From Pseudodesulfovibrio mercurii (GTDB lineage Bacteria; Desulfobacterota; Desulfovibrionia; Desulfovibrionales; Desulfovibrionaceae), in the NCBI RefSeq assembly GCF_000189295.2, contig NC_016803.1, forward strand, positions 2,910,001-2,942,000: a DNA stretch of 32,000 nucleotides. Direction: 5' to 3'. The position numbers and the translations under genes were made by a program. Below are positions 2,007 to 14,362 of this stretch, piece by piece. The first letter of the stretch is position 1, and every line of letters begins with the position of its first letter. The notes under the pieces were generated by a model. It was not told the DNA's origin, did not search any database, and saw only the letters and a list, made by a program, of their open reading frames with translations.

Positions 2007-3437
2007 CTATACGTCCAGGCCCTCTTTCTTGTATTCGTTGAGCTTGTTGCGCAGGGTGCGCACGGAGATGCCGAGCAGTTCGGCCGCGCGGGTGCGGTTG
2101 CCGGTGGTCTCTTCGAGGCTCTTGAGGATGAGCCGCTTCTCCATCTCGTGCAGGGGCATGACCGACACGGCCTCGTCCGGGGTGGACGGGGGCGCGGCCT
2201 CGCAGGCCGCCTGCTGGTCCGCGTCGATGGCCGACAGGTCGTCCGGGGTCCACTGCTCGTCACCCATGAGGAAGTGGCGCGGCCGGATGGGTCCCGCGCC
2301 CGCCAGAAGCACGGCCCGCTCCATGAGGTTCTGCAGCTCGCGCACGTTGCCCGGCCAGTCGTAGTTCATCAGCCATTTCCTGGCCTCGTCGGTGAAGGCG
2401 AGGCCGGCCAGGCCGTAGGCCGCGGTGAACTTGTTGGTGAAGTATTCGGCCAGCAGGAGCACGTCCTCGCCCCGGTCCTTGAGGGCGGGCAGGGCCAGGG
2501 GGATGACGTTCAGCCGGTAGTAGAGGTCCTGGCGGAACTTGCCTTCCCGGACCGTGTCCTCGATGCGTCGGTTGGTGGTGGCCAGGACGCGTACGTCCAC
2601 CTTGACCGTGTCCACGCCGCCCACGCGGTCGAACTCCGATTCCTGGAGCACGCGCAGCAGCTTGGCCTGGAGGCCCAGGTCCATCTCGGTGATCTCGTCC
2701 AGGAGGATGGTCCCGCCGTCGGCCAGCTCGAACTTGCCGAGCTTGCGCTGGATGGCCCCGGTGAACGCGCCCTTTTCGTGGCCGAACAGCTCGCTTTCCA
2801 GCAGGTGCTCGGGCAGGGCCGCGCAGTTGATGGCCACGAACGGCTTGTCCGCGCGGTCGGAGTTGTGGTGCAGGTAGCGGGCGAACATCTCCTTGCCGGT
2901 GCCGGACTCGCCGGAGATGAGCACCGTGGCCTTGGACCCGGCCACCTGCTTGGCCAGGGCGAGCACGCGCAGGACCGCGGTGTGGCGGCCGATGATCTGG
3001 AACCGCCCCTTGGGCGAGCCGTTGCCGGACGGCCGGTGGTCGGCCTTGGGCGGGCAGGGCGCGGGTTCGGGTTCCGGCTCGGGCTCCTCGTCGGGCAGGA
3101 CGAGCCGGATCTTTTCCCAGACCAGGGGCTCTATCCAGTAGTCGCGCGCCCCGAGTTCGAGAAATTCCGTGGCCTGCTCGGCGCTGCCCGAGGCCGTGAA
3201 CACGACCACCGGGGGGAACCCCTCGATCTGGGAGGCCTTGCGCAGAAACGCCTTGGCGTCGAATCCCTGCAACTGCGGGCGGCAGAAGATCAGGCAGGGC
3301 CGGGACTTCTTGATGAAGCCCAGGGCCCCGTTCAGGTTGTCGGCCAGCCCCGCCTGCAGCCCGGCCTTCTGCAAGGTCGGGAAAATGGCGGTCACGGACT
3401 GCGGCTCCGCGATGAAGAGAACTGTTTTTGCCGACAT
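2007..3437 (-). CDS. Sigma-54-dependent transcriptional activator (bEBP): degenerate receiver, AAA+ domain, Fis-type HTH
   Basis: Track ORF is 2007..3602. The likely start is ATG 3437 (MSAKTVLFIAEP...). Walker A GESGTGKE, sigma-54 contact loop GAFTGA, Walker B ILLDEI, C-terminal HTH AAELLGISVRTLRNKLNEY. An EPEPEPEP linker joins the receiver to the AAA+ domain. Confidence 0.9.
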   Translation of the reverse strand: MSAKTVLFIAEPQSVTAIFPTLQKAGLQAGLADNLNGALGFIKKSRPCLIFCRPQLQGFDAKAFLRKASQIEGFPPVVVFTASGSAEQATEFLELGARDYWIEPLVWEKIRLVLPDEEPEPEPEPAPCPPKADHRPSGNGSPKGRFQIIGRHTAVLRVLALAKQVAGSKATVLISGESGTGKEMFARYLHHNSDRADKPFVAINCAALPEHLLESELFGHEKGAFTGAIQRKLGKFELADGGTILLDEITEMDLGLQAKLLRVLQESEFDRVGGVDTVKVDVRVLATTNRRIEDTVREGKFRQDLYYRLNVIPLALPALKDRGEDVLLLAEYFTNKFTAAYGLAGLAFTDEARKWLMNYDWPGNVRELQNLMERAVLLAGAGPIRPRHFLMGDEQWTPDDLSAIDADQQAACEAAPPSTPDEAVSVMPLHEMEKRLILKSLEETTGNRTRAAELLGISVRTLRNKLNEYKKEGLDV

Positions 3438-3592
3438 GGTCACTCCTATTATCGGCAAGTCGGAAAGTTTACAAGAGGTTCGCGCGGTTGGCCGAACCGC
3501 CGGACCTTCCCGGCCGCGTCCCCTCCCGCCTTGCCCTGGTCCGGCCCATCTGCTACTTCTCGGAAGCCCGAGCGCAAGCGAGAAAATAACCG

Positions 3593-5725
3593 ATGAGCAC
3601 ATCCATACCCGTCCTCTGCTACCACAACGTGTCCGACGTGAACGGCCACACGCCCGAGCGGTTCCGCGAACACCTGGACGCCATGCTCGACGCGGGCTGG
3701 CGGACCATCTCCGGCCGCGAGCTGCTGGCCGTGACGCGCGGAGACATGGCCGCGCCGAAGAAATCCCTGGTCCTGACCTTCGACGACGGCCACCTGTCCA
3801 ACTGGACCACCGTGGTCCCGGAGCTGGAGAAGCGCGGCATGACCGGGACCTTCTTCGCGCTCACGGACTTCACCGTGCCCGGCGAGGTGCGCACGGCCGA
3901 CACCGCGCCGGCCATGCTGCCCATGCCCCAGGCCTTCCGGGCCGCCCTCCTGGACGGCGATTTTTCCCAGTTCATCAACGAGGCCGAGTACCGGGCCATG
4001 CTCGACAAGGGCATGGAGGTCTTCGCCCACGGCTGCCACCACCAGGCCGCGTTCATCAACCTCGTGCCGCAGCCGCCCATGGGGGCGGCCGGGGCGCACT
4101 GGGGCGGCTGGTCCATCTATCCCGGCCACCACGACGGCTGGCCCCTGTTCAAGGCCGGGAGCGCCTACGTCTACGACGGGTTCTGGCCCGTGCTCGAAGG
4201 GTTGGGCGGGCCGCGCTTCGTCAAGCGGTCCGAGGCCGAGCGCCGGGCGTTCTGCCGCCGGGACTTCCGCCGGAGCCTGGAACGCATCCGCGCCCTGAAC
4301 GGCTGGGACGAGCAGCTCTTCTGCTGGCCGTGGGGCCAGTTCGACCCGGTGGCCGAGGCCGAGCTGAAGGAGGCCGGGTACGTCGGGGCCTTCACCCTGG
4401 AGCGCTGGGCCAACGCCCGGGGCACGGACCCGTTCCGTCTCAACCGGATCGGCGTGGGCGCCCCCAAGGACGGCCGCTGGATCCAGCACCGGCTGCGCAT
4501 GTACTCGGGCACCCTCTCCTCCCGCTTCTTCTTCAAGAAATACCGCAAGAAGCCGGAGGTGAACGCCGTCCTCTACGCCACGGACTCCGACAAGCTGTCC
4601 GGCGGCAGCCGCCAGATGATCAACAACGTCAAGGCCATGGCCGACATGGGCGTGAAGGTATACGCCCTGGTCGCCCCGGACTCGGCCCTCAACCAGGCCC
4701 TGGACGGCCTGGACGGAACCAATGTCGAAGTGGTCCGTTTCGACGGGTTCCGGGACTACGTGCGGGCCGGGAAGTTTCTCAAGGCCCTGGTCCGGGACCG
4801 GTCCATCGACGTGGTCCACACCTTCCACAACCGGGCCTACAAGATGGGCGTGCTGGCCCGGCTCCTGGGCGCGAAGTGCAAACTGTTCATCAACCGGGGG
4901 GTCATCTCCCGGCCCAACGCCGTGTTCTTCCTGTGGACCGCGCTCAGCGACGGGGTCATCGCCAACTCGGTCCGCTGCGCCGAGATACTGCGCAGGCACT
5001 GGGTGCGCGGGGGGCTCCTGAACGTGGTCTACAACGCCTATGCGGAACCGGACCACGGCGAGCCCAAGCCGCGCAAGAAGCGGGGCACGCGCTTCATCTA
5101 CGTGGGCAACGGCGCGCACATCAAGGGGTTCGACGTCTTTCTGAAGGCCGCCGACCGGCTCTGCCGGGACGGGGCGCGCGACCTGGAGTTCGTGGGCGTG
5201 GGCGTGGGCGACGGCGAACTCGGCCGGTTCGAGGACGTCCTCACCCCCCGGGTCCGCGAACGCTACCGCAACGCGGGCAAGCTCTCCCACGCCGAGGTCC
5301 TGGACGAGCTGCGTTTCGCCGACGTCCTGGTGGTCTCCTCGCGTCTGGAGAGCCTGCCCAACGTCCTGCTCGAAGGGTTCGACTTCGGCCTGCCCGCCGT
5401 GTGCACCAGCGTGGGCGGCATCCCCGAGGTGGTCCGCGACGGCGTGGACGGCTTCCTCTGCGCCTCCGAGGACGCGGACTGCCTGGCCGCGCGGATGCGC
5501 CGACTGGCCGAGGACCCGCTCAAGCGGTACGCCCTGGGGCTGGCGGGCCGCCGGGTGGTGCGCACCCTGTTCACGCCCGAGGCCAAGGGGCGCAACCTCA
5601 TGCGCGTGTACATGGGCGAGCGGCTGTACGAGCCCCTGCCCATCGAGGCCATGACCGTGGCCGAGCCCCCGGCCGAACCTGCCGCCGACATCGAGGAGCA
5701 TACCCATGGGCGCGCCCAAGGCTGA
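3593..5725 (+). CDS. Fusion protein: polysaccharide deacetylase (CE4/NodB-like) N-terminal half plus GT-B glycosyltransferase (GT4-like) C-terminal half
   Basis: 710-aa ORF. N-terminal part has VLCYHNVSD and LVLTFDDGH (the CE4 TFDDG motif). C-terminal part has SSRLESLPNVLLEGFDFGLPAVCTSVGGIPEVVRDGVDGFLC, a GT4-type E-x7-E region. Confidence 0.8.
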   Translation: MSTSIPVLCYHNVSDVNGHTPERFREHLDAMLDAGWRTISGRELLAVTRGDMAAPKKSLVLTFDDGHLSNWTTVVPELEKRGMTGTFFALTDFTVPGEVRTADTAPAMLPMPQAFRAALLDGDFSQFINEAEYRAMLDKGMEVFAHGCHHQAAFINLVPQPPMGAAGAHWGGWSIYPGHHDGWPLFKAGSAYVYDGFWPVLEGLGGPRFVKRSEAERRAFCRRDFRRSLERIRALNGWDEQLFCWPWGQFDPVAEAELKEAGYVGAFTLERWANARGTDPFRLNRIGVGAPKDGRWIQHRLRMYSGTLSSRFFFKKYRKKPEVNAVLYATDSDKLSGGSRQMINNVKAMADMGVKVYALVAPDSALNQALDGLDGTNVEVVRFDGFRDYVRAGKFLKALVRDRSIDVVHTFHNRAYKMGVLARLLGAKCKLFINRGVISRPNAVFFLWTALSDGVIANSVRCAEILRRHWVRGGLLNVVYNAYAEPDHGEPKPRKKRGTRFIYVGNGAHIKGFDVFLKAADRLCRDGARDLEFVGVGVGDGELGRFEDVLTPRVRERYRNAGKLSHAEVLDELRFADVLVVSSRLESLPNVLLEGFDFGLPAVCTSVGGIPEVVRDGVDGFLCASEDADCLAARMRRLAEDPLKRYALGLAGRRVVRTLFTPEAKGRNLMRVYMGERLYEPLPIEAMTVAEPPAEPAADIEEHTHGRAQG

Positions 5726-7268
5726 CGGCCGCGCCGCCTGGCGCGCCCTGCCCGACGATCTCAAGGGGCTGCTGCGCCTCGGGTTCACGGGCAAGGGCCA
5801 CCTGCTCGACGTGGCCGCCCACGGCCTGCGCTCGGGCCGGGCCGCCGCCCCCGTGGTCCGGGACGCCCTGCGCACCCTGGCCGCGAACCATCCCCTGGAC
5901 GGCGGGCTGGCCGCCGAGGTGCTCGACGCCGCCCCGGCCGCCGCGCTCCTCGACCCGGACGACGCGGCCCGGCTGCGCGTCCTGGCCGACCACTGGCGCG
6001 CCCCGGCCGACCCCGCGCCGCTCCGCGACCTGCTGGCCGCCCGCGACTTCGCCCGGACCCGTGCCTTCCTGGACCGGGCCGTGGCCCGTGAGCCCGCCAA
6101 CCTCTTCTGGCGCGAACAGGCGGTCGTCGCGGGCACGGTGGAGAACGAGCCGGACTTCGTCTTCCACATCCTGAACATGGACGCCCCCGACACGGTCCGT
6201 CCGCTCCTTGCCGCCGCCGAAAACCGCGCCCGGACCCTCTTTTCCCCGCCCGCGCCGCCCGCGCCCGAAGCGCTCCTGGACGCGGCCCGCACGGCCCCGT
6301 GGAACGTCGGCCTGGCCCTGCGCGCCCACGACGCCCTGACCGGGGTGTCCTCCCTGCGCGCGCCCCTGCCGGGCCGCACGGCCGTGCTGCTCTACTCCTG
6401 GAACAAGGCGGACGAACTGGACGCCACCCTGGGGACCCTGCTCACCGCCGATCTCGCGGACGCCTCGCTCTTCGTCCTGGACAACGGCTCCACGGACCGC
6501 ACCGCCGAGGTACTGGCCCGCCGGGCCGGGCAGTTCGCCGACCGGCTGGGCGCGGACCGCCTGACCACGGTCTCCCTGCCCGTGAACATCGGCGCGGCCG
6601 CCGCGCGCAACTGGCTGCTCCACCTGGACGCGGTCCGTGCGCACGACTTCGTCTGCTACCTGGACGACGACGTGGACCTGCCCGCCGACTGGCTGCAACG
6701 GCTCGGCGCGGCGGTCTCGCGCTACCCCGAAGCGGGCGTCTGGGGCTGCAAGGTGGTGGACCACGCCAACCCCCTGTGCATCCAGAGCGCGGACAGCCAC
6801 CTGTCCATGGACCCCGAGGCCCATGCCGACCTGACCCGCCTGGACCCCAACCCCTTCGGCCTGACCGGTCTGCACGCCCAGACCCTGGACACCGGCGACT
6901 TCGACTTCCTGCGCCCCTGCGCCTCGGTCACGGGCTGTTGCCACCTCTTCCGCACGGACGTGCTCCTGGACTCCGGCGACTTCGCCATCCACCTTTCCCC
7001 GTCCCAGTACGACGACATGGAGCACGACCTGCGCCTGTGCGAGGCGGGCCGCTTCCCGGTCTGCCAGGGACACCTCGCCGTGCGCCACAAGAAGCGGACC
7101 GGCGCGGCCTCCCTGATCTCCGCCCCGGAACTGGGCAACGCCCTGGGCAACAAGTACAAGATGCAGGTCATGCACGCCCGCGCCGACATCGCCGCCGCCC
7201 TCAAGGCCGAACAGGCCCTGCTCGAAAGCGACCTGCTCGGCAAGCTGGAATACCTCGACTCTCTGTAG
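5706..7268 (+). CDS. GT2-family glycosyltransferase with a roughly 210-aa Ala/Leu/Arg-rich helical N-terminal extension
   Basis: ATG 5706 overlaps the upstream stop (5723-5725) by 20 nt. GT-A signatures: VLLYSWNKADELDATLGTL, FVLDNGSTDRT, NIGAAAARN, and DxD in CYLDDDVDLP. The start is less certain than the stop. Confidence 0.7.
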   Translation: MGAPKADGRAAWRALPDDLKGLLRLGFTGKGHLLDVAAHGLRSGRAAAPVVRDALRTLAANHPLDGGLAAEVLDAAPAAALLDPDDAARLRVLADHWRAPADPAPLRDLLAARDFARTRAFLDRAVAREPANLFWREQAVVAGTVENEPDFVFHILNMDAPDTVRPLLAAAENRARTLFSPPAPPAPEALLDAARTAPWNVGLALRAHDALTGVSSLRAPLPGRTAVLLYSWNKADELDATLGTLLTADLADASLFVLDNGSTDRTAEVLARRAGQFADRLGADRLTTVSLPVNIGAAAARNWLLHLDAVRAHDFVCYLDDDVDLPADWLQRLGAAVSRYPEAGVWGCKVVDHANPLCIQSADSHLSMDPEAHADLTRLDPNPFGLTGLHAQTLDTGDFDFLRPCASVTGCCHLFRTDVLLDSGDFAIHLSPSQYDDMEHDLRLCEAGRFPVCQGHLAVRHKKRTGAASLISAPELGNALGNKYKMQVMHARADIAAALKAEQALLESDLLGKLEYLDSL

Positions 7269-7466: not shown

Positions 7467-7796
7467 CTATTCGTAGAGCTTGTCGAGCTCCTCGTACACG
7501 TAGCGCATGTACATCATCTTGGGCGAACCGCCCATGGCCACGGCCAGGAGGCCGGCGTCGATGATCTCGTCCTTGGTGGCCCCGCAGGTCACCGCGTTCT
7601 GCACGTGGAGCGATATGCACATGTCGCACTGGGATAGGATGGAACAGGCGATCAGGATCAGGGACTGGTACTTGTCCTCGATGGCGCTGCCCTTCTTGAT
7701 GGCGGCGGTGAACCCCTGGTACGCCTTGAAGACGTTGCGGCGGTTCTTGTTCATCTGGCGAAAGAGTTCGGTCGCTTTTTCAGCGGGTTCCGGCAT
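7467..7796 (-). CDS. Carboxymuconolactone decarboxylase / AhpD-like family protein (109 aa)
   Basis: Track ORF is 7467..7973. The likely start is ATG 7796 (MPEPAEKATELF...), preceded by AAGGAGA with a 5-nt spacer. It carries the AhpD-type redox motif CDMCISLH (CxxC-x3-H). Confidence 0.85.
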   Translation of the reverse strand: MPEPAEKATELFRQMNKNRRNVFKAYQGFTAAIKKGSAIEDKYQSLILIACSILSQCDMCISLHVQNAVTCGATKDEIIDAGLLAVAMGGSPKMMYMRYVYEELDKLYE

Positions 7797-7820
7797 AGCG
7801 GTCTCCTTGGTGAGTAGAGT

Positions 7821-7849
7821 CCGGTCCAGGAGAACGTCTCCTGGACCGG
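7821..7849 (-). promoter_or_regulatory. Perfect 13-bp inverted repeat (hairpin or operator) in the leader of the AhpD-like gene
   Basis: CCGGTCCAGGAGA (7821-7833), ACG, TCTCCTGGACCGG (7837-7849). It sits 12 nt upstream of the true SD on the mRNA strand. Confidence 0.5.
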
Positions 7850-7967
7850 GCCTATGAGAGGGAGAGAGTCCCGATTGGGTTGCCCATTGGGTACATTCAA
7901 AAAATCGACCTGTAAAGTGGAAAAAAGAGGAAAAAATTTCTATTTTGAAGAATTTTGTTACGTTTTT

Positions 7968-8014
7968 TGCCAAATAAACAACCGATTCCGCTTCGTTGCG
8001 CGGAATCGGTTGTT
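7968..8014 (-). terminator. Intrinsic terminator of the ABC exporter gene
   Basis: A perfect 15-bp stem, AACAACCGATTCCGC (7977-7991) with GCGGAATCGGTTGTT (8000-8014). On the minus strand it is followed by TTTATTTGG. Confidence 0.75.
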
Positions 8015-8037
8015 TCGGCTTTCCCGTCGGAAAGGGG

Positions 8038-10566
8038 CTAGTCCTCCGTGCCGTGGATCAGGGTGTAGAGCGCGCCCTTTCGATCCAGGAGCGCCCGGTA
8101 TTCGCCCTGTTCCACGATGCGGCCCGCCTTGAGGACCACCACCTTGTCGTAATAGGGCAGCATGTCCAGCCGGTGGATGACCGCCAGGACCGTGGACTTG
8201 CCCTTCCAGTTGTTGGTCAGGATGTTCTGCACCCGGGCCTGGGACTTGTTGTCCAGGGCGGCGGTGGCCTCGTCCAGGATGAGCACGGGCGGGGCCTTGA
8301 GGAAGGTCCGGGCCAGGGCCACCTTCTGGCGCTGGCCGCCGGACAGCCGGTCGCCCATGGAGCCCACCTGGAAATTCAACCCCATCTCCACCACCGGCTC
8401 CAGGGCCCCCTGCATGATCAGGGCCTGCATGATCCGGTGGTTGATCTCCTCCTCGGCCCCCTGGGCGTCGGTGCGCACGCGGCCGAACAGGATGTTGTCC
8501 TGGATGTTCAGGGCGTCGATGTATTTGTCTTGGGCGAAGAAGGTGAACGCGCCGGGGTAGCGCTCCGTGGCCAGGTCCATGAAGTCCCGGCGGGAGTGGA
8601 CCACGCGGTTGGCGAACCCCTTGTCCAGGACCACCTGCTTGTGGATGCCCGGCGTGTAGCCCATGGCCAGCTTGAGGATCAGCGCCTTTTCCTGCTCGGA
8701 CAGCGGTTCGCCCGAATCCAGCCGGTTGGCCACCTTCTGGTAGTCGCCGTACTCGGCCTCGGTAATGGGGCTGCCCGCGAAGTCCTCGTGGGAGGGCTCC
8801 GGGCCGAGCTCGTCCGTGACCACCCTGGCCAGGGTCTCGCCGAGGACCGTCAGGTGGGCCATCAGCCCGTGGTCGTCGAGAAACTTCAGAAATTCCGGAT
8901 GGGCGTGCAGGTGCTCCTGGTCGAAGGGCTCGGCGTTGGACGCGCCGAAGGCGATGTTCTCGGCCACGGTCATGTAGCGCGAGTAGGAGTCCGTGTCGAA
9001 GAACTCGATGTGCTCGGCCACGTCCGCGTACATGCCCGCCTCACCCTCCTGGAACTCCTTGCGCGAGGCCAGGATGGCCTCCTTGAGGGCCGCGTTGTCC
9101 GCTTCGGGGTCCAGGCGGGAGCGCAGGGCGAAGGCCAGGACGTCGGTGAACAGCCCCACCTGCTGGGTGATCTTGATCAGGTCGTCCAGGCTGGGCTCGT
9201 CGCCGCCCGGACAGTGCCCGCCCTGCATGGCCAGGGAGCGGCAGGAGTAGAGCAGGTTCTCCTTGACCGTGCCGTCGAAGATGAACGGGTGCTGGGCGAC
9301 CATGCCGAGGTTGTAGGAGATGTCCTGCTTGGTCAGCTCCGAGACCTCGCGCCCGCCGAGCAGGACCGAGCCGCTGGTGTACTTGTAGAGCAGGGCCACG
9401 CACAGGGCCAGGGTGGACTTGCCCGAGCCCGAGAAGCCGACCAGGGCCACGTGTTCGCCGCCCTTGACCTTGAGGGAGACGTTGTCCAGCAGCCGGACGT
9501 TGCCGCCGACCACGAAGGACAGATTGCGGATCTCCACGTCGTTGTCCAGAAGGTAGGGGGCGCGTCCCTCGGTGACCTGCTTGAACTCCGGCGCGTGGTC
9601 GAAGGCGCGCATGATCTGCTGGTAGCGCACCGAACTGTCCTGGTAGACCTGCCAGAACTCCATCAGCTCCTTCCACGGGTCGTAGAGCTTCTCGTAGGCC
9701 GACAGGAAGGCCACGATGGCGCCCACGTCGAAGCGGCCCTGGATGGCGTACCAGCCGCCGATGAGGAAGAGCACGAACGGGCCCAGGCTCATGAAGAAAT
9801 TGTTCACGAACTTGATGGCGAACTTGATCCCGTTCTGCAGTACGGTGGCCTTGTAGAGCTTGTTCAGGACCTTGCTGAAGCGCTGCTTTTCCAGTGGGAT
9901 GGAGGCGTTGGAGTGGACCTCGTGCACCCCGGAGACGGCCTCGCCCACCAGGCCGGACAGGGCCTGGGTGTGCTTGATTCGGCGGCGGTTGGCCCGGCGG
10001 AAGTATTTCTGGACGCGCGGCAGGACGAAGAGCTCCACCGGGTAGATGGAGATGGAGATCAACCCGATGGTCGGGTTGAGGTTGATCATGTATGCGGCCA
10101 TGGCCAGGAAGGTCAGGATGTTCACCGCGGGCACGGCAACGGCCTGGCCGATGAAGGTGGCCACCGGGATGAACTCGGTGATCAGGTAGGAGATGACGTT
10201 GCCGGGCGAGGTGCGGCGGTAGAACTGCACTGGCAGGGACAGGAGGTGTTCGTAGAGCCGCTCGCGGATGGTCTTCAGGGCGCGCTCGCCGATCTGGACC
10301 TGCATCAGGTTGATGGCGAACTTGAGGATCGCGGCCAGGGTCACGGACCCGATGTACAGGGCGCAGTACCGCCACAGGGCCGAGACGTCCTTCATGCCGA
10401 TGGCCTGGTTGATGATCCGTTTCTGCATTTCCAGCGGGACCACGCGCATGGCCACGGTGACCACGATGATGCCCACCACGGCCAGTTGGAGCGGGACGCT
10501 CTTGTACAGGACCCAGGAATACAGGGAGGTTTTGGTGATTCGTTTCTGGTCGTTGGGGTGCGGCAT
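8038..10566 (-). CDS. ABC exporter (fused TMD-NBD half-transporter) with a greatly expanded nucleotide-binding domain
   Basis: Track ORF is 8038..10686. I prefer ATG 10566 (MPHPNDQKRITKTSLYSWVLYKS...), just before TM1; ATG 10632 is an alternative. Walker A GFSGSGKST, Q-loop MVAQHP, signature LSGGQRQK, Walker B VLILDEAT, H-loop AVIHRL. The Q-loop to signature distance is 316 aa, versus about 55-65 aa in typical NBDs. Confidence 0.85.
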   Translation of the reverse strand: MPHPNDQKRITKTSLYSWVLYKSVPLQLAVVGIIVVTVAMRVVPLEMQKRIINQAIGMKDVSALWRYCALYIGSVTLAAILKFAINLMQVQIGERALKTIRERLYEHLLSLPVQFYRRTSPGNVISYLITEFIPVATFIGQAVAVPAVNILTFLAMAAYMINLNPTIGLISISIYPVELFVLPRVQKYFRRANRRRIKHTQALSGLVGEAVSGVHEVHSNASIPLEKQRFSKVLNKLYKATVLQNGIKFAIKFVNNFFMSLGPFVLFLIGGWYAIQGRFDVGAIVAFLSAYEKLYDPWKELMEFWQVYQDSSVRYQQIMRAFDHAPEFKQVTEGRAPYLLDNDVEIRNLSFVVGGNVRLLDNVSLKVKGGEHVALVGFSGSGKSTLALCVALLYKYTSGSVLLGGREVSELTKQDISYNLGMVAQHPFIFDGTVKENLLYSCRSLAMQGGHCPGGDEPSLDDLIKITQQVGLFTDVLAFALRSRLDPEADNAALKEAILASRKEFQEGEAGMYADVAEHIEFFDTDSYSRYMTVAENIAFGASNAEPFDQEHLHAHPEFLKFLDDHGLMAHLTVLGETLARVVTDELGPEPSHEDFAGSPITEAEYGDYQKVANRLDSGEPLSEQEKALILKLAMGYTPGIHKQVVLDKGFANRVVHSRRDFMDLATERYPGAFTFFAQDKYIDALNIQDNILFGRVRTDAQGAEEEINHRIMQALIMQGALEPVVEMGLNFQVGSMGDRLSGGQRQKVALARTFLKAPPVLILDEATAALDNKSQARVQNILTNNWKGKSTVLAVIHRLDMLPYYDKVVVLKAGRIVEQGEYRALLDRKGALYTLIHGTED

Positions 10567-10729
10567 AAGCCATCCATTTTTCGGGTTCGGGACAGTTCGG
10601 GTATAAACGGTCCGGACTGGTTTTCCAAGCATTATAATGGAAATGGGGTGCGGGGCGGTGGACATTTGCCCCCCATCTGTGGTCAAACGTCATGTACGGC
10701 GCCGCGGCGGCAGGGCGTCCGGAAAACGT

Positions 10730-13324
10730 ATGAAGATATCCATCCGAGTCAAATTCTTCGTGGTCCTCCTGGCCTTCAGCCTGGGGCCCATCTTCGTCTC
10801 GCGCGGACTCATGAGCCGGGCCTCCAACAACGTCATCAAGGAGACCGGGGACCAGACCCGGCGCGAGCTGCTCGGCATCGTGTCCGACGAGTTCCGGTAT
10901 ACGGCCTCCTCCCTGCTCGATCTGCTCGAGCGCGGCTCCGAGGTCATGCGCCTGGCCACCCTGGGCGTGGCCCGCGTGGTGGACGGCGTCCTGGCCCTGC
11001 CTTCGCCAGAGGACGGGCCGGAGCCCTTCCTGGCCAACGACTTCGGCGATCCGGATCTGACCCCGCCCGACGCGGCCCGGCGTCAGGGGTACAGCCGCCG
11101 GACCATGGGCAACCGCCAGCAGCTGATCCAGGTCAGCTTCGACCATCCGACATTCCACCTGCCGCACATGCTCGACGAGCGGGCCGTGGAGCCCGAGATG
11201 CACCGCCTGCTCCTGGCCATGCCCGAGATCCGGGCCATCTTCCGAAACCTGCCCCAGGCCCCGTTCTGGATCAACGTGGCCATGGAGTCGGGCGTGATGA
11301 TGACCTATCCCGGCCACGGCAGGCTGCCCGCCATGTACGACGCCAGGACCCAGGACTGGTACGTCAAGGTCCGGGAGGCGAACGCCTTCCAGTGGTTCCA
11401 CAGCGTGGACCCGGCCACCCGGTACGTGGTCAACAAGGTGGTCTACCCCCTGCGCGACGCGTCCGGGCGCTTTCTCGGGGCCGTGTCCATCGACATCCCG
11501 ACCCACTCCATGATGGCGGACGAACAGCTCGAGGCCCGCTGGGGCGGCGAGGTGCGCACCTTCCTGGTGGAGCGCATCCCCGAGGGAAGCCCCACGGAAA
11601 AGGGGCTGCCCATCCTGGTCCAGCGGGAGCCCAACGAGCAGGGCCGTCACCACTGGATGAGCGCCGTGGAGCAGGAGTGGCTGACCTTCGACGAGCCCGT
11701 GGGCTACGAGGTCCTGCTCCACGCCATGGACACTCGCGACTCCGGCGTGGTGGACGTCTCCTACGAGGGCGAGCCGTCCCTGTGCGCCTTCGCCTCCACC
11801 GAGGTTGTCTCGCTGCTGGTCATCGCGCCCAAGACCGTGGCGGCCAAACTGCCCGACGAGGTGGCGGCCTCCCTCCAGAGCCTCTTCGCCGAGGTGCGCG
11901 CCATGTCCTCGGTGGTCTCCGGGGCCATGCTGATCATCACCGGGCTCATCGCCTGGTTCGGTTCGCGGGCCATCACCAAGCCCATCTACGCCATCGTCGA
12001 GGTGGCCAGGAAGCTGACCCGGGGCGACTTCGGCGCGCGCATCGAGCACCACACCGGGGACGAACGCGACGACCTGATCAATTCCATCAACGAAATGGGC
12101 CCGCAGCTCAAGGAGCTCATGCACCTCAACCGGGTCATGGAGGTGGCCCAGGAGGTCCAGCGGCTGCTCCTGCCCGGCGCGGAGCCCGAACTGGCCGGGT
12201 ACGACATCTCGGGCGGCATCCTCTACTGCGACAAGACCGGCGGCGACTACTACGACTTTCTCAAGGTCTGCCCGGCCGACCACGCCCCCTGCCTGGCCGT
12301 GGTCATCGGCGACGTGTCCGGCCACGGCGTGCCGTCGGCCCTGGTCATGGCCACGGCCAGGGGCCAGCTGCACACCCTGTCCGACATCGAGATGGCCCCG
12401 CACGAGCGCGTGGGGACCATCAACCGGGTGCTCAGCCGCGACCTGGACGGCACCGGACGGTTCCTGACCCTGTTCTATCTCCAGCTCACGGCGGACTCGA
12501 ACCAGGTGCAGTGGGTCCGGGCCGGGCACGATCCGGCCATCCGCTACAATCCGGCCACGGACGTCTTCGGCGAGCTGCACGGCGAGGGCATCCCGCTCGG
12601 CGTCATCGAGAACTACGCCTACGCGACCAGCGGGACCACCCTCGAAGGGGGCGAGGTCCTGGTCATGGCCACGGACGGGGTCTGGGAGGCCCGCAACGCG
12701 GACGGCGAGATGTTCGGCAAACAGAGAATGCTTGCCATCATCCGGGAGAGCGCCCATAAAAGTGCCGAGGGCATCCGCCTGGCCATGATGGCCGCGGTGG
12801 AGGCCTTTCAGGGCAACGGCCAGGAGGACGACATCGCCGTCGTCGTGGTCAAGAGGGAAGCGGACGGCAAGTCCATGGCGCGACATTCCATATCCTTCCG
12901 CATGACCAACAAGCAGAACTGCTTCAAGTGCTTCCAACCCAAGGTGGAGGCATTCGGCATCGAACACGGCCTGCACCCCAAGATCATTTTCCACCTGACC
13001 CTGGTCCTGGACGAGTTGATCACCAACATCATCTCCTACGGGTACGCCGACTTCGACGAGCATCCCATCGACGCGACCATCGTCCTGCAGGGCGAGGACC
13101 TGATCATACGGGTGGAGGACGACTCCGAGCCCTTCAACATCCTGGAGGCCCCGGAGCCCGAACTGGACGTGCCCCTGGAGGATCGCACCAAGCCCGTGGG
13201 CGGCCTGGGCATCCACCTGATCAAGAACATGGTGCACGGCATCCATTACAAGCGAGAAAACGGCAAGAACGTCCTGACCCTGCACAAGAACATCGGCAAG
13301 ACCCACTGCCCGGTGCAGGGCTAG
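10730..13324 (+). CDS. Membrane sensor: periplasmic Cache-like domain, HAMP, PP2C (SpoIIE/RsbU-type) phosphatase, RsbW/SpoIIAB-like HATPase kinase domain
   Basis: Track ORF is 10637..13324. The likely start is ATG 10730 (MKISIRVKFFVVLLAFSLGPIF, i.e. TM1). Second TM plus HAMP: MLIITGLIAWFGSRAITKPIYAIVEVARKLTRGDFGARI. PP2C blocks: GGDYYDF, VVIGDVSGHGVPSAL, VRAGHDP, VMATDGVWEA. C-terminal N-box LDELITNIISYG and G2-like GGLGIHLIKNMV. Confidence 0.85.
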   Translation: MKISIRVKFFVVLLAFSLGPIFVSRGLMSRASNNVIKETGDQTRRELLGIVSDEFRYTASSLLDLLERGSEVMRLATLGVARVVDGVLALPSPEDGPEPFLANDFGDPDLTPPDAARRQGYSRRTMGNRQQLIQVSFDHPTFHLPHMLDERAVEPEMHRLLLAMPEIRAIFRNLPQAPFWINVAMESGVMMTYPGHGRLPAMYDARTQDWYVKVREANAFQWFHSVDPATRYVVNKVVYPLRDASGRFLGAVSIDIPTHSMMADEQLEARWGGEVRTFLVERIPEGSPTEKGLPILVQREPNEQGRHHWMSAVEQEWLTFDEPVGYEVLLHAMDTRDSGVVDVSYEGEPSLCAFASTEVVSLLVIAPKTVAAKLPDEVAASLQSLFAEVRAMSSVVSGAMLIITGLIAWFGSRAITKPIYAIVEVARKLTRGDFGARIEHHTGDERDDLINSINEMGPQLKELMHLNRVMEVAQEVQRLLLPGAEPELAGYDISGGILYCDKTGGDYYDFLKVCPADHAPCLAVVIGDVSGHGVPSALVMATARGQLHTLSDIEMAPHERVGTINRVLSRDLDGTGRFLTLFYLQLTADSNQVQWVRAGHDPAIRYNPATDVFGELHGEGIPLGVIENYAYATSGTTLEGGEVLVMATDGVWEARNADGEMFGKQRMLAIIRESAHKSAEGIRLAMMAAVEAFQGNGQEDDIAVVVVKREADGKSMARHSISFRMTNKQNCFKCFQPKVEAFGIEHGLHPKIIFHLTLVLDELITNIISYGYADFDEHPIDATIVLQGEDLIIRVEDDSEPFNILEAPEPELDVPLEDRTKPVGGLGIHLIKNMVHGIHYKRENGKNVLTLHKNIGKTHCPVQG

Positions 13325-13343
13325 TCCCATACGGAGGGAGAGA

Positions 13344-13676
13344 ATGGCATTGAATCAGATCGAAGAGGGCGGGGTGGTCATCCTCGCCGTGGACGGCAAC
13401 CTCGACGGCGAGGGCACCCAGGCCCTGGAGGACAAGGTCCTGGCCCTGCTGGAAAACGGCACCACCAGGCTGTTGTTCGACTTCACCGGCCTGGACTACA
13501 TCAACAGCTCGGGATTGCGGGTCCTGGTCCTGGCCTACCAGCGGCTGAAGAAGAACTCCGGCACCGTGGCCATCTGCGGGGTCAAGGACTACATCCAGGA
13601 AGTGTTCGAGGTCTCGGGATACGACAAGATCTTTCCGCTTTACCCCACGCGGATCGATGCCTTGGGGGCGCTGTAG
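13344..13676 (+). CDS. STAS-domain anti-sigma-factor antagonist (RsbV/SpoIIAA type), 110 aa
   Basis: SD GGAGGGAG lies upstream. The phosphorylatable serine motif is DYINSSGLRVLV. The gene starts 19 nt after the sensor gene. Confidence 0.9.
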   Translation: MALNQIEEGGVVILAVDGNLDGEGTQALEDKVLALLENGTTRLLFDFTGLDYINSSGLRVLVLAYQRLKKNSGTVAICGVKDYIQEVFEVSGYDKIFPLYPTRIDALGAL

Positions 13677-13886: not shown

Positions 13887-14348
13887 CTAAATCGTATGAA
13901 TGACATGCAACACGACCCCCCAGATCAGGAAGTCCGTCTCCTCGGATAGCAAAATCGCCACATACTCGGGATTCTCCGGGGCCAGCTCCAGGCCGAGCGG
14001 GGACTTCCTCAGCCGCTTGACCGTGAATTCCCCCTCCACCAGGGCGATGACCACGTTGCCGGGCCTCGGGTCCAGGGAGCGGTCCACCACCAGCAGGTCG
14101 CCGTGGTGGATTCCCGCCCCGATCATGGAATCCCCGGACACGCGCACGAAATAGGTCGCCTCGGGCCGCGTCACCAGGTGCTCGTTCAGGTCCAGCCGCT
14201 TCTCCAGATACTCCTCGGCGGGCGACGGAAACCCCGCCGGGACCGACTCCCCGGCCAGGGGCACGGCCAGCCGCGTCCCGAAACAGGGCCGGCATATGGC
14301 CCACGCCCGGCCGTCCGCGCCCACCGCGCCGTGCAGACAAAAAGCCAT
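13887..14348 (-). CDS. UmuD-like S24 self-cleaving peptidase (153 aa), without a LexA-type HTH domain
   Basis: Ala-Gly cleavage site followed by FPSP (VPAGFPSPAEEY), catalytic Ser in RVSGDSM, catalytic Lys in FTVKRL. ATG 14348 is preceded by GAGGTG with a 6-nt spacer. The track's GTG at 14357 lies inside that SD. Confidence 0.85.
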   Translation of the reverse strand: MAFCLHGAVGADGRAWAICRPCFGTRLAVPLAGESVPAGFPSPAEEYLEKRLDLNEHLVTRPEATYFVRVSGDSMIGAGIHHGDLLVVDRSLDPRPGNVVIALVEGEFTVKRLRKSPLGLELAPENPEYVAILLSEETDFLIWGVVLHVIHTI

Positions 14349-14362
14349 CGGGAACACCTCGT

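Follow-up and report, generated by a model that had tools for sequence, protein, structure and literature searches.

What does a partner-switching module control when no sigma factor gene is encoded near it? The question is raised by a 32,000-nucleotide stretch of Pseudodesulfovibrio mercurii DNA (contig NC_016803.1, positions 2,910,001 to 2,942,000; hereafter the window). A gene for a membrane-bound sensor with fused PP2C phosphatase and RsbW-like kinase domains is followed there by a gene for a single-domain STAS protein, and both are divergent from a gene for an ATP-binding cassette (ABC) exporter. A sequence-only reading of this DNA had proposed that the exporter is the output of the module and that about 250 extra residues in its ATPase domain serve as the docking surface for the STAS protein. 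The analysis presented here separates these two ideas. The predicted functional coupling between module and exporter is well supported by comparative genomics, and docking of the STAS protein on the insert is not. We give an even chance to the more specific proposal that the module controls the exporter post-translationally and not via gene expression. Phosphorylation of the STAS serine Ser55, physical binding between STAS protein and exporter, the direction of control and a periplasmic ligand are what we infer beyond this coupling.

Conserved linkage of the partner-switching genes to the exporter

A comparison of gene neighbourhoods around exporters with a long spacing between the Q-loop and the LSGGQ signature had been suggested as a check of this proposal. 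A forward scan was performed, in which an alignment of the ATPase insert only (alignment A2, which defines the family and has the window exporter as its first row) was searched against one genome per species. A total of 80 loci were retrieved, 29 of them from Desulfovibrionales, Syntrophobacterales and related metagenome-assembled genomes (MAGs; delta-type loci) and 51 from Alpha- and Betaproteobacteria (alpha/beta loci). Open reading frames (ORFs) were called and clustered, hidden Markov models of the clusters were searched in all six frames, and three delta-type loci were added by exact look-up. A STAS gene lies within 3 kb of the exporter gene in 25 of the 31 delta-type loci, mostly with an RsbW-like kinase gene beside it. 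Of the six loci that lack it, two are truncated contigs on which the kinase gene is still seen. When the window and the loci of three further Pseudodesulfovibrio genomes (L164, L165 and L166, from P. hydrargyri, P. sediminis and a P. piezophilus-like contig) are added, the STAS gene is near the exporter gene in 29 of 35 loci. The divergent block of STAS/PP2C and exporter genes is present in all three of these genomes. Neither a STAS nor a kinase gene was found at any of the 51 insert-bearing alpha/beta loci.

The linked loci display at least seven gene orders, and their flanks are unrelated. Many of these orders include a gene for a single-domain cyclic-nucleotide-binding (cNMP-binding) protein or a gene of family F19. 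Co-directional orders include exporter, cNMP-binding gene, F19, kinase and STAS, and the same series with F19 missing. Other loci have a divergent arrangement of STAS and kinase against the exporter, or a split one in which the STAS gene is divergent from an exporter, cNMP-binding and kinase series. Further variants carry one or two Cache-HAMP-PP2C genes, and the phosphatase and kinase are either fused or split, even between close relatives. In Desulfocurvibacter africanus, the exporter, cNMP-binding, F19, kinase and STAS genes overlap or lie less than 50 nt apart, forming a tight operon. Among Pseudodesulfovibrio genomes, only the block of STAS, (kinase) and PP2C genes divergent from the exporter is retained, and the flanks are wholly different from genome to genome. 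This retention of the block amid flank turnover is the signature of a selected functional association.

The inputs of the linked phosphatases also differ, comprising dCache-HAMP, MASE10(-HAMP) and cNMP-binding domains, and the STAS protein, the kinase and the exporter remain constant. Variable input with a constant STAS, kinase and exporter set is what one would predict for a module whose output lies on the exporter side.

Several features of individual operons were also recorded. At L009 (6242–7486), an N-terminal cNMP-binding domain is fused to PP2C in a gene that adjoins the STAS-kinase pair and the exporter. MASE10 inputs on exporter-linked phosphatases were found at L011 and L118. The F19 protein (about 206 aa; L083 11013–11633) has an N-terminus resembling a signal peptide and matches nothing in Pfam or NCBIfam. 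It was identified at 19 loci (such as L001, L005, L008, L017 and L022), where in many delta-type operons its gene stands between the cNMP-binding gene and the kinase gene; it is absent from the window. F19 could be a periplasmic accessory or substrate-related protein. At L001, L005, L008, L015, L017, L022 and L083, the exporter operon adjoins a four-gene block (F27, F23, F24 and F25) that is not found in the window. In several Desulfovibrionaceae this block encodes a cytochrome c, a molybdopterin oxidoreductase, a 4Fe-4S protein and an NrfD-like protein, a set which we take to resemble QrcABCD.

All three parts of a partner switch are present in the window, namely a PP2C/SpoIIE phosphatase, a HATPase_c_2 kinase and a single-domain STAS protein with a conserved serine. 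The Cache-HAMP-PP2C-RsbW order read earlier from the plus-strand sensor gene agrees with the Pfam matches (Table 1), although the Cache assignment is weak. The sensor has an N-terminal hydrophobic segment and a second one further on (both by inspection only), with about 380 aa of periplasmic sequence between them, and this periplasmic region gives a weak dCache_1 match in Pfam (E 8.8e-5) that lies under the gathering score. No Response_reg or PAS match was found in the Pfam scan of the sensor. The PP2C motifs GGDYYD, GDVSGHG, TDG and DD, with the metal-binding Asp, are intact in the translation. The kinase domain shows weak NCBIfam matches to RsbW and SpoIIAB and has a conserved N-box and G2 box. 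Its G1 box reads EDDSEPF, compared to EDDGxPF in other lineages. Ser or Ala at this G1 position (EDD[S/A]EPF) is conserved across Pseudodesulfovibrio and Salidesulfovibrio, so the variant is under selection. The closest solved relative of the sensor in a PDB sequence search is the fused PP2C-kinase protein Rv1364c (E 1.1e-6).

The STAS protein (Pfam STAS, 1.2e-20) matches the anti-sigma factor antagonist family TIGR00377 with 80.5 bits (cut-off 53.45), and its nearest solved proteins are SpoIIAA-type antagonists. Against the MlaB model NF033618 it scores 23 bits (cut-off 90), so it does not belong to the MlaB family. The serine motif DYINSSGL noted earlier is present in this protein. Its Ser55 (codon 13506–13508), the predicted phospho-acceptor, is invariant across 12 STAS orthologues; from inspection of the motif, we take it to be the equivalent of the phosphorylated Ser58 of SpoIIAA.

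A co-encoded sigma target, which is usual in RsbU/V/W systems, is absent from these loci. No sigma or anti-sigma gene was found among the ORFs of the whole window, to which the search of this genome was confined, as the sequence-only reading had stated. A jackhmmer search seeded with three sigma-70-family sequences identified no sigma-70-family ORF at any of the 87 exporter-bearing loci (the window and 86 others). Its only sigma matches are at three metagenome STAS loci, all of them without the exporter. The exporter and the cNMP-binding adaptor are the only conserved candidate targets of the module.

The exporter family, its ATPase insert and its cNMP-binding partner

In the NCBI protein database, P0001 of P. 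mercurii has the same sequence as the exporter (100% identity). Pfam identified an ABC_membrane domain and a split ABC_tran domain, corresponding to a half-transporter with an N-terminal domain of six transmembrane segments and a C-terminal ATPase. Walker A (GFSGSGKST), the Q-loop (Q425), LSGGQ, Walker B (ILDEAT) and the H-loop are canonical, and these ATPase motifs are invariant across 99 homologues. An AlphaFold2 model of the whole protein has a pLDDT of 85.6. In Foldseek it matches only ordinary exporters of 570 residues, with PCAT1, TmrAB and MsbA at the top (E about 1e-24). The best-scoring curated families are MsbA and HepA, both far under the NCBIfam cut-offs. The exporter scores 312 against the MsbA equivalog TIGR02203 (cut-off 602) and 256 against the HepA equivalog NF045513 (cut-off 725), and both alignments are split by the insert. 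An NCBIfam search of the exporter, the cNMP-binding protein, F19 and the glycosyltransferases gave nothing above cut-off. In a full-text literature search, neither the exporter family nor a partner switch linked to an ABC exporter was found to be described.

The insert lies in the helical subdomain of the ATPase (Table 1). Solved exporters (PDB chains) align up to about residue 448 and again from about residue 730, and the alignment to the CydD model resumes at residue 661. The nucleotide-binding domain therefore contains about 210–280 extra residues between the Q-loop and LSGGQ, in line with the earlier figure of about 250. Modelled alone, the insert is mostly helical (pLDDT 89.6). A Foldseek search of the insert alone against the PDB gave no significant fold match (best E 0.15, TM below 0.17), and no known regulatory fold could be assigned from this or the whole-model search. 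The insert consists of two extra copies of the Q-loop/'ENIxFG' element with helical bundles, giving three copies in total of a strand/'ENIxFG'/helix unit. Within aa 415–745 of the exporter these copies read FIFDGTVKENLLY, YMTVAENIAFG and LNIQDNILFG, and the Q-loop glutamine (Q425) is kept in the first copy only. An internal repeat was detected by hhalign (repeat 2 vs. repeat 3, 93% probability, E 3.4e-7), which shows that the insert, as judged from its repeats, arose by internal duplication.

A profile search with the insert retrieved 899 representative proteins at E up to 0.001 (among 1.84 billion). The position of the insert is constant in full-length members, which range in size from 830 to 1150 residues, and the identity of the insert is 33–54% across the aligned Desulfovibrionales-type homologues. 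The delta-type exporters, including that of the window, have canonical ATPase motifs. Six alphaproteobacterial exporters (L041, L045, L047, L058, L061 and L070) have degenerate ones, for example GPGGAGNEA or GPSGGGKGE for Walker A, ARLSxxQRQK for the signature and LNDA or LNEA for Walker B. These alpha-type exporters may be poor ATPases or may work differently. A substrate that is lipid-linked or a glycan is suggested by the nearest families and, in other lineages, by the glycosyltransferase and lipid genes of the neighbourhood. The fused glycosyltransferase (GT) and deacetylase gene of the window was considered as evidence on the substrate and set aside, because it shares only 23–41% identity, over partial length, with the alpha-type GT4 genes and has no conserved counterpart by the exporter at the other Pseudodesulfovibrio loci.

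The cNMP-binding protein is a nearly universal partner of the family. Its single-domain gene is immediately downstream of the exporter gene in 81 of 83 loci, often overlapping the last codons of the latter, and in several loci the domain is fused to the C-terminus of the exporter. The nine long members scanned out of the 150 best representatives are all exporter-cNMP fusions. The cNMP-binding gene is absent from the window, L164–L166 and L084. It is kept in P. tunisiensis and Salidesulfovibrio, in the order exporter, cNMP-binding gene and CMD gene. A comparison of window positions 7797–8037 with L081 (10501–10992) and L082 (10498–11019) indicates that only a strong hairpin and an AT-rich stretch are left between the exporter and the CMD/AhpD-like gene. 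The absence of the cNMP-binding gene is a lineage-specific loss.

The phosphate-binding cassette of the cNMP-binding protein separates the loci into two sets. A canonical cassette (GE...R[TS]A) is present at 47 loci, none of which has STAS or kinase, and the two never occur together. A degenerate cassette (G[GAS]...[KR]LF) is present at 21 loci that carry STAS or kinase and at two that do not. Class III cyclases adjoin the exporter-cNMP pair in 10 alpha/beta loci. Signalling proteins nearly always accompany this exporter family. The simplest reading of these patterns is that the family is generally signal-controlled and that Desulfobacterota would have replaced a cyclic-nucleotide input with the partner switch. 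Two Deltaproteobacteria MAG loci, L024 (176–574 and the neighbouring ORF) and L025 (family F33), carry two tandem PilZ genes upstream of the exporter, and L025 has neither STAS nor kinase. This suggests cyclic di-GMP as a third kind of input to the family.

The proposal that the insert is the docking surface of the STAS protein does not stand. The same insert is found in the 51 alpha/beta loci that have no STAS or kinase gene, and the main partner of these exporters is the cNMP-binding protein. Because the insert is a family trait with or without STAS, it cannot be read as a STAS-specific docking surface. What stands of the earlier proposal is the exporter as the output, supported as a functional coupling by the conserved linkage. 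Tentatively, and as a possibility we rate as doubtful, the triplicated Q-loop/helical insert and the C-terminal cNMP adaptor may form the regulatory platform of a signal-gated exporter family in which the input has been swapped during evolution. The input would be a cyclic nucleotide in Alpha- and Betaproteobacteria, where cassettes are canonical and cyclase genes adjoin. In Desulfobacterota it would be a STAS protein controlled by phosphatase and kinase, acting with a degenerate cassette or, in the case of P. mercurii, with no adaptor.

A proposed mechanism and the competing explanations

The exporter is an MsbA/HepA-like homodimeric pump, and if the module acts on it post-translationally, the two would form a dedicated signalling-transport unit. 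A periplasmic cue would act via the Cache-like domain and HAMP and would shift the balance of PP2C and kinase activity on Ser55 of the STAS protein. The unphosphorylated STAS protein, or the kinase domain freed by it if the switch is a true partner switch, would then bind the exporter at its cytoplasmic ATPase region; the cNMP-binding adaptor may be bound instead in related genomes. Binding would alter the ATPase activity of the exporter and its transport, and the kinase would reset the switch by rephosphorylating the STAS protein.

Several observations weigh against this mechanism. The insert, as described above, is not specific to STAS-bearing loci. The search for an exporter-STAS fusion in the nine long members of the 150 best representatives found none. 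The G1 ATP-lid motif of the kinase is atypical in the Pseudodesulfovibrio/Salidesulfovibrio lineage. The contrast between delta-type and alpha-type loci may reflect a single ancestral event, and the locus counts are not independent. A reverse scan was also performed, in which an alignment of the linked STAS orthologues was searched against metagenome contigs and the 80 nearest homologues were taken. The long-insert exporter adjoins 17 of these 80, so the association is not exclusive. Among the 18 reverse loci that extend 4 kb or more to either side, three have the exporter, three have other cNMP-domain transporters and 12 have neither. An extracytoplasmic function (ECF) sigma gene lies beside the STAS homologue in two metagenome loci (L111 and L112).

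The reverse loci display further features. Several cut metagenome contigs show cNMP-binding, kinase and STAS genes in this order at their edge. In three loci (L119 8293–9729, L130 8334–9713 and L144 8299–9729), a PP2C-kinase fusion and a STAS gene are beside a K+-channel-like Ion_trans protein with a TVGYGD filter and a C-terminal cNMP-binding domain. In two others (L089 1605–4652 and L123 2–1309), an MFS-HEAT-cNMP protein is followed by kinase, STAS and GAF-PP2C. The STAS/kinase/PP2C subfamily thus recurs beside cNMP-domain membrane transport proteins, a hint that the adaptor, where present, may be a contact point. Partner switches of this kind may generally target cNMP-domain transporters.

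An output through a distant sigma factor has to be weighed against control of the exporter itself. In a transcriptional partner switch of the classical or HsbA/CrsR-like kind, the RsbW-like domain or the STAS protein might act on an unlinked sigma or anti-sigma factor (for example of a FliA/FlgM-type pair), with the exporter co-regulated or a member of the regulon. The STAS protein, kinase and PP2C domain are typical of the anti-sigma-antagonist type, as the TIGR00377 score and the weak RsbW and SpoIIAB matches indicate, and CrsR and HsbR are examples of fused PP2C-kinase proteins whose targets, RpoS or FlgM, are unlinked. The ECF sigma genes at L111 and L112 also favour this explanation, as does an flgM gene about 2 kb away in one related locus (L082). 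This flgM neighbour, however, is not conserved, and no sigma-70-family gene occurs at the 87 exporter-bearing loci. Moreover, the linkage to the exporter outlasts at least seven rearrangements and full flank turnover, which is hard to explain without a direct functional tie. We consider a distant sigma target unlikely. Mere adjacency by descent in one clade, with no functional link, meets the same difficulty. It would fit the restriction of all linked loci to Desulfobacterota-type genomes, where one ancestral juxtaposition could explain much, and the occurrence of STAS homologues of similar identity in unrelated contexts. Proximity has nevertheless been kept while order, strand and fusion state changed repeatedly, flanks are unrelated within one genus, and several genomes show operonic overlap, so that such synteny inertia is highly improbable.

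The exporter could also stand upstream of the module. It might export the compound sensed by the Cache domain, in an autocrine or feedback loop, or its transport state might be read by the sensor, and the STAS output would then lie elsewhere, for example in a second-messenger enzyme as in SiaABCD or HsbA-HsbD. The ligand region of the sensor is periplasmic and the exporter delivers to the periplasm, the signal-peptide protein F19 is inside the operon at many loci, and second-messenger contexts (cyclases, PilZ and cNMP-binding domains) are found in the family. There is, on the other side, no conserved candidate output besides the exporter and the cNMP-binding protein. Because some linked phosphatases have cytoplasmic or membrane-embedded inputs (cNMP-binding-PP2C and MASE10), a periplasmic feedback loop is not the general rule. 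We regard this arrangement as quite unlikely.

Layout of the locus, related systems and implications

The three genes of the module and exporter are real by the ORF listing and by codon-position GC content (0.91–0.93 at third positions). The coordinates of all features are given in Table 1. The arrangement read earlier was borne out, including the exporter on the minus strand, the 163-bp gap and the spacing of 19 nt between the sensor and STAS genes. Regions homologous to this divergent gap are 51–165 bp long in L081 and L164–L166.

Table 1. Features of the window discussed in the text (positions in nt from the first letter of the window).
Feature	Position	Strand	Details
Sigma-54-dependent activator (not a sigma factor)	2007–3602	-	
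GT4 and polysaccharide-deacetylase fusion	3593–5725	+	
GT2 gene	5706–7268	+	
CMD/AhpD-like gene	7467–7796		
Terminator-like hairpin directly after exporter stop codon	7969–8019	-	RNA fold
ABC exporter gene	8038–10566	-	842 aa; start ATG 10566
Insert in ATPase helical subdomain	8377–9231	-	about aa 446–730 (at least 449–660)
Divergent intergenic region, exporter and sensor	10567–10729	.	163 bp; sequence read
Candidate sigma-70-type promoter of exporter	10600–10628	-	-35 TTGGAA (10623–10628), 17-nt spacer, -10 TATACC (10600–10605)
Sensor gene	10730–13324	+	864 aa
HAMP of sensor	11963–12097	+	Pfam
PP2C/SpoIIE phosphatase of sensor	12293–12856	+	Pfam 7.4e-49
RsbW-like HATPase_c_2 kinase of sensor	12947–13288	+	Pfam 9.7e-18
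STAS gene	13344–13676	+	110 aa
UmuD-like S24 peptidase gene, convergent with module	13887–14357	-	Pfam and NCBIfam

The terminator proposed earlier after the exporter gene corresponds to a stable hairpin (-38.2 kcal/mol, z = -6.6), and none of 200 shuffled sequences folds equally well. A simple terminator scan did not call it because its U-tract is imperfect and interrupted. The hairpin occupies the position held by the cNMP-binding gene in related genomes. Within the divergent region, a TTGGAA-17 nt-TATAnn arrangement is a candidate promoter of the exporter gene. In an alignment of six Pseudodesulfovibrio intergenic regions, CTTGGAA is invariant and the spacing to TATAnn is kept; a consensus promoter scan of the 163-bp region called no promoter. 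A sigma-54 promoter was sought by eye in the same region and rejected, as the spacing is wrong.

Downstream of the STAS gene, the convergent gene noted earlier encodes a UmuD-like S24 peptidase. It stands alone, with no umuC/IMS polymerase gene after it, and in L166 an S24 gene is followed by an IMS-family polymerase gene. On the other side, the GT4-deacetylase fusion and the GT2 gene are convergent with the exporter operon, and the gene for the sigma-54-dependent activator is beside the GT4-deacetylase gene. At the other Pseudodesulfovibrio loci, none of these three genes was seen in the vicinity of the exporter.

The module shares a PP2C/SpoIIE phosphatase, a HATPase_c_2 kinase and a single-domain phospho-Ser STAS protein with the RsbU/RsbV/RsbW and SpoIIE/SpoIIAA/SpoIIAB systems of Bacillus. 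In contrast to these, it has no sigma gene nearby, its phosphatase and kinase are fused in a membrane protein with periplasmic input, and its conserved neighbour is a transporter. It also resembles HsbR/HsbA of Pseudomonas, CrsR/CrsA of Shewanella, SypE/SypA of Vibrio fischeri and Rv1364c of M. tuberculosis, where PP2C and an RsbW-like kinase are in one polypeptide with an adjacent STAS protein and the output is not an adjacent sigma gene. The proteins of this group have a receiver or PAS input and are cytoplasmic, whereas the window sensor has two membrane segments, a Cache-like periplasmic region and HAMP. We know of no linkage to an ABC exporter described for the HsbR, CrsR, SypE or Rv1364c systems. 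Partner switches without a sigma factor that act on non-transcriptional or unknown targets include SypA and BtrV, and unphosphorylated SypA controls polysaccharide and biofilm formation via an unknown target (PMC8256260).

A direct precedent for contact between a STAS protein and an ABC ATPase is the Mla system, in which the STAS protein MlaB regulates MlaF through binding to its helical subdomain. In MlaB, the residue equivalent to the phospho-site (Thr52) lies at the MlaF interface, the T52E variant weakens binding, and phosphoregulation of MlaFB has been proposed with no kinase known (PMC7367683). The exporter insert sits in the same ATPase subdomain, and here a kinase/phosphatase pair is co-encoded. 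Unlike MlaB, the window STAS protein is of the anti-sigma-antagonist type, and the ATPase is fused to an exporter-type membrane domain and is not part of an MlaE system. In Anabaena, the STAS-glycosyltransferase All4160 works with the HenR phosphatase and the Alr3423 kinase (PMC13555669). It is likewise a partner-switch-like module, one that controls an envelope or polysaccharide function directly and not via a sigma factor. In All4160 the STAS domain is fused to the target enzyme, whereas in the window the STAS protein is free and the candidate target is a transporter. The NHLP bacteriocin exporters (TIGR03797; associated TIGR03896) are likewise exporter-type ABC proteins accompanied by or fused to a cNMP-binding domain. 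Scores, however, lie far below the cut-offs of TIGR03797 and TIGR03896, NHLP exporters have no helical-subdomain insert, and the window has no cNMP-binding gene.

Few systems are known in which accessory proteins control an ABC transporter post-translationally, and whether STAS-ABC regulation is under phospho-control is a question raised by the MlaFB structure. Partner switches without a sigma factor are widespread, with targets that are mostly unknown, as for SypA. A complete partner switch compactly paired with one exporter offers a directly testable system in a tractable sulfate reducer, and the analysis defines an uncharacterised exporter family of hundreds of sequence clusters. If the swap of inputs proposed above is true, this would be the first case of a genuine phospho-STAS partner switch gating an ABC exporter, and it would supply the kinase/phosphatase logic that has only been hypothesised for MlaB-MlaF.

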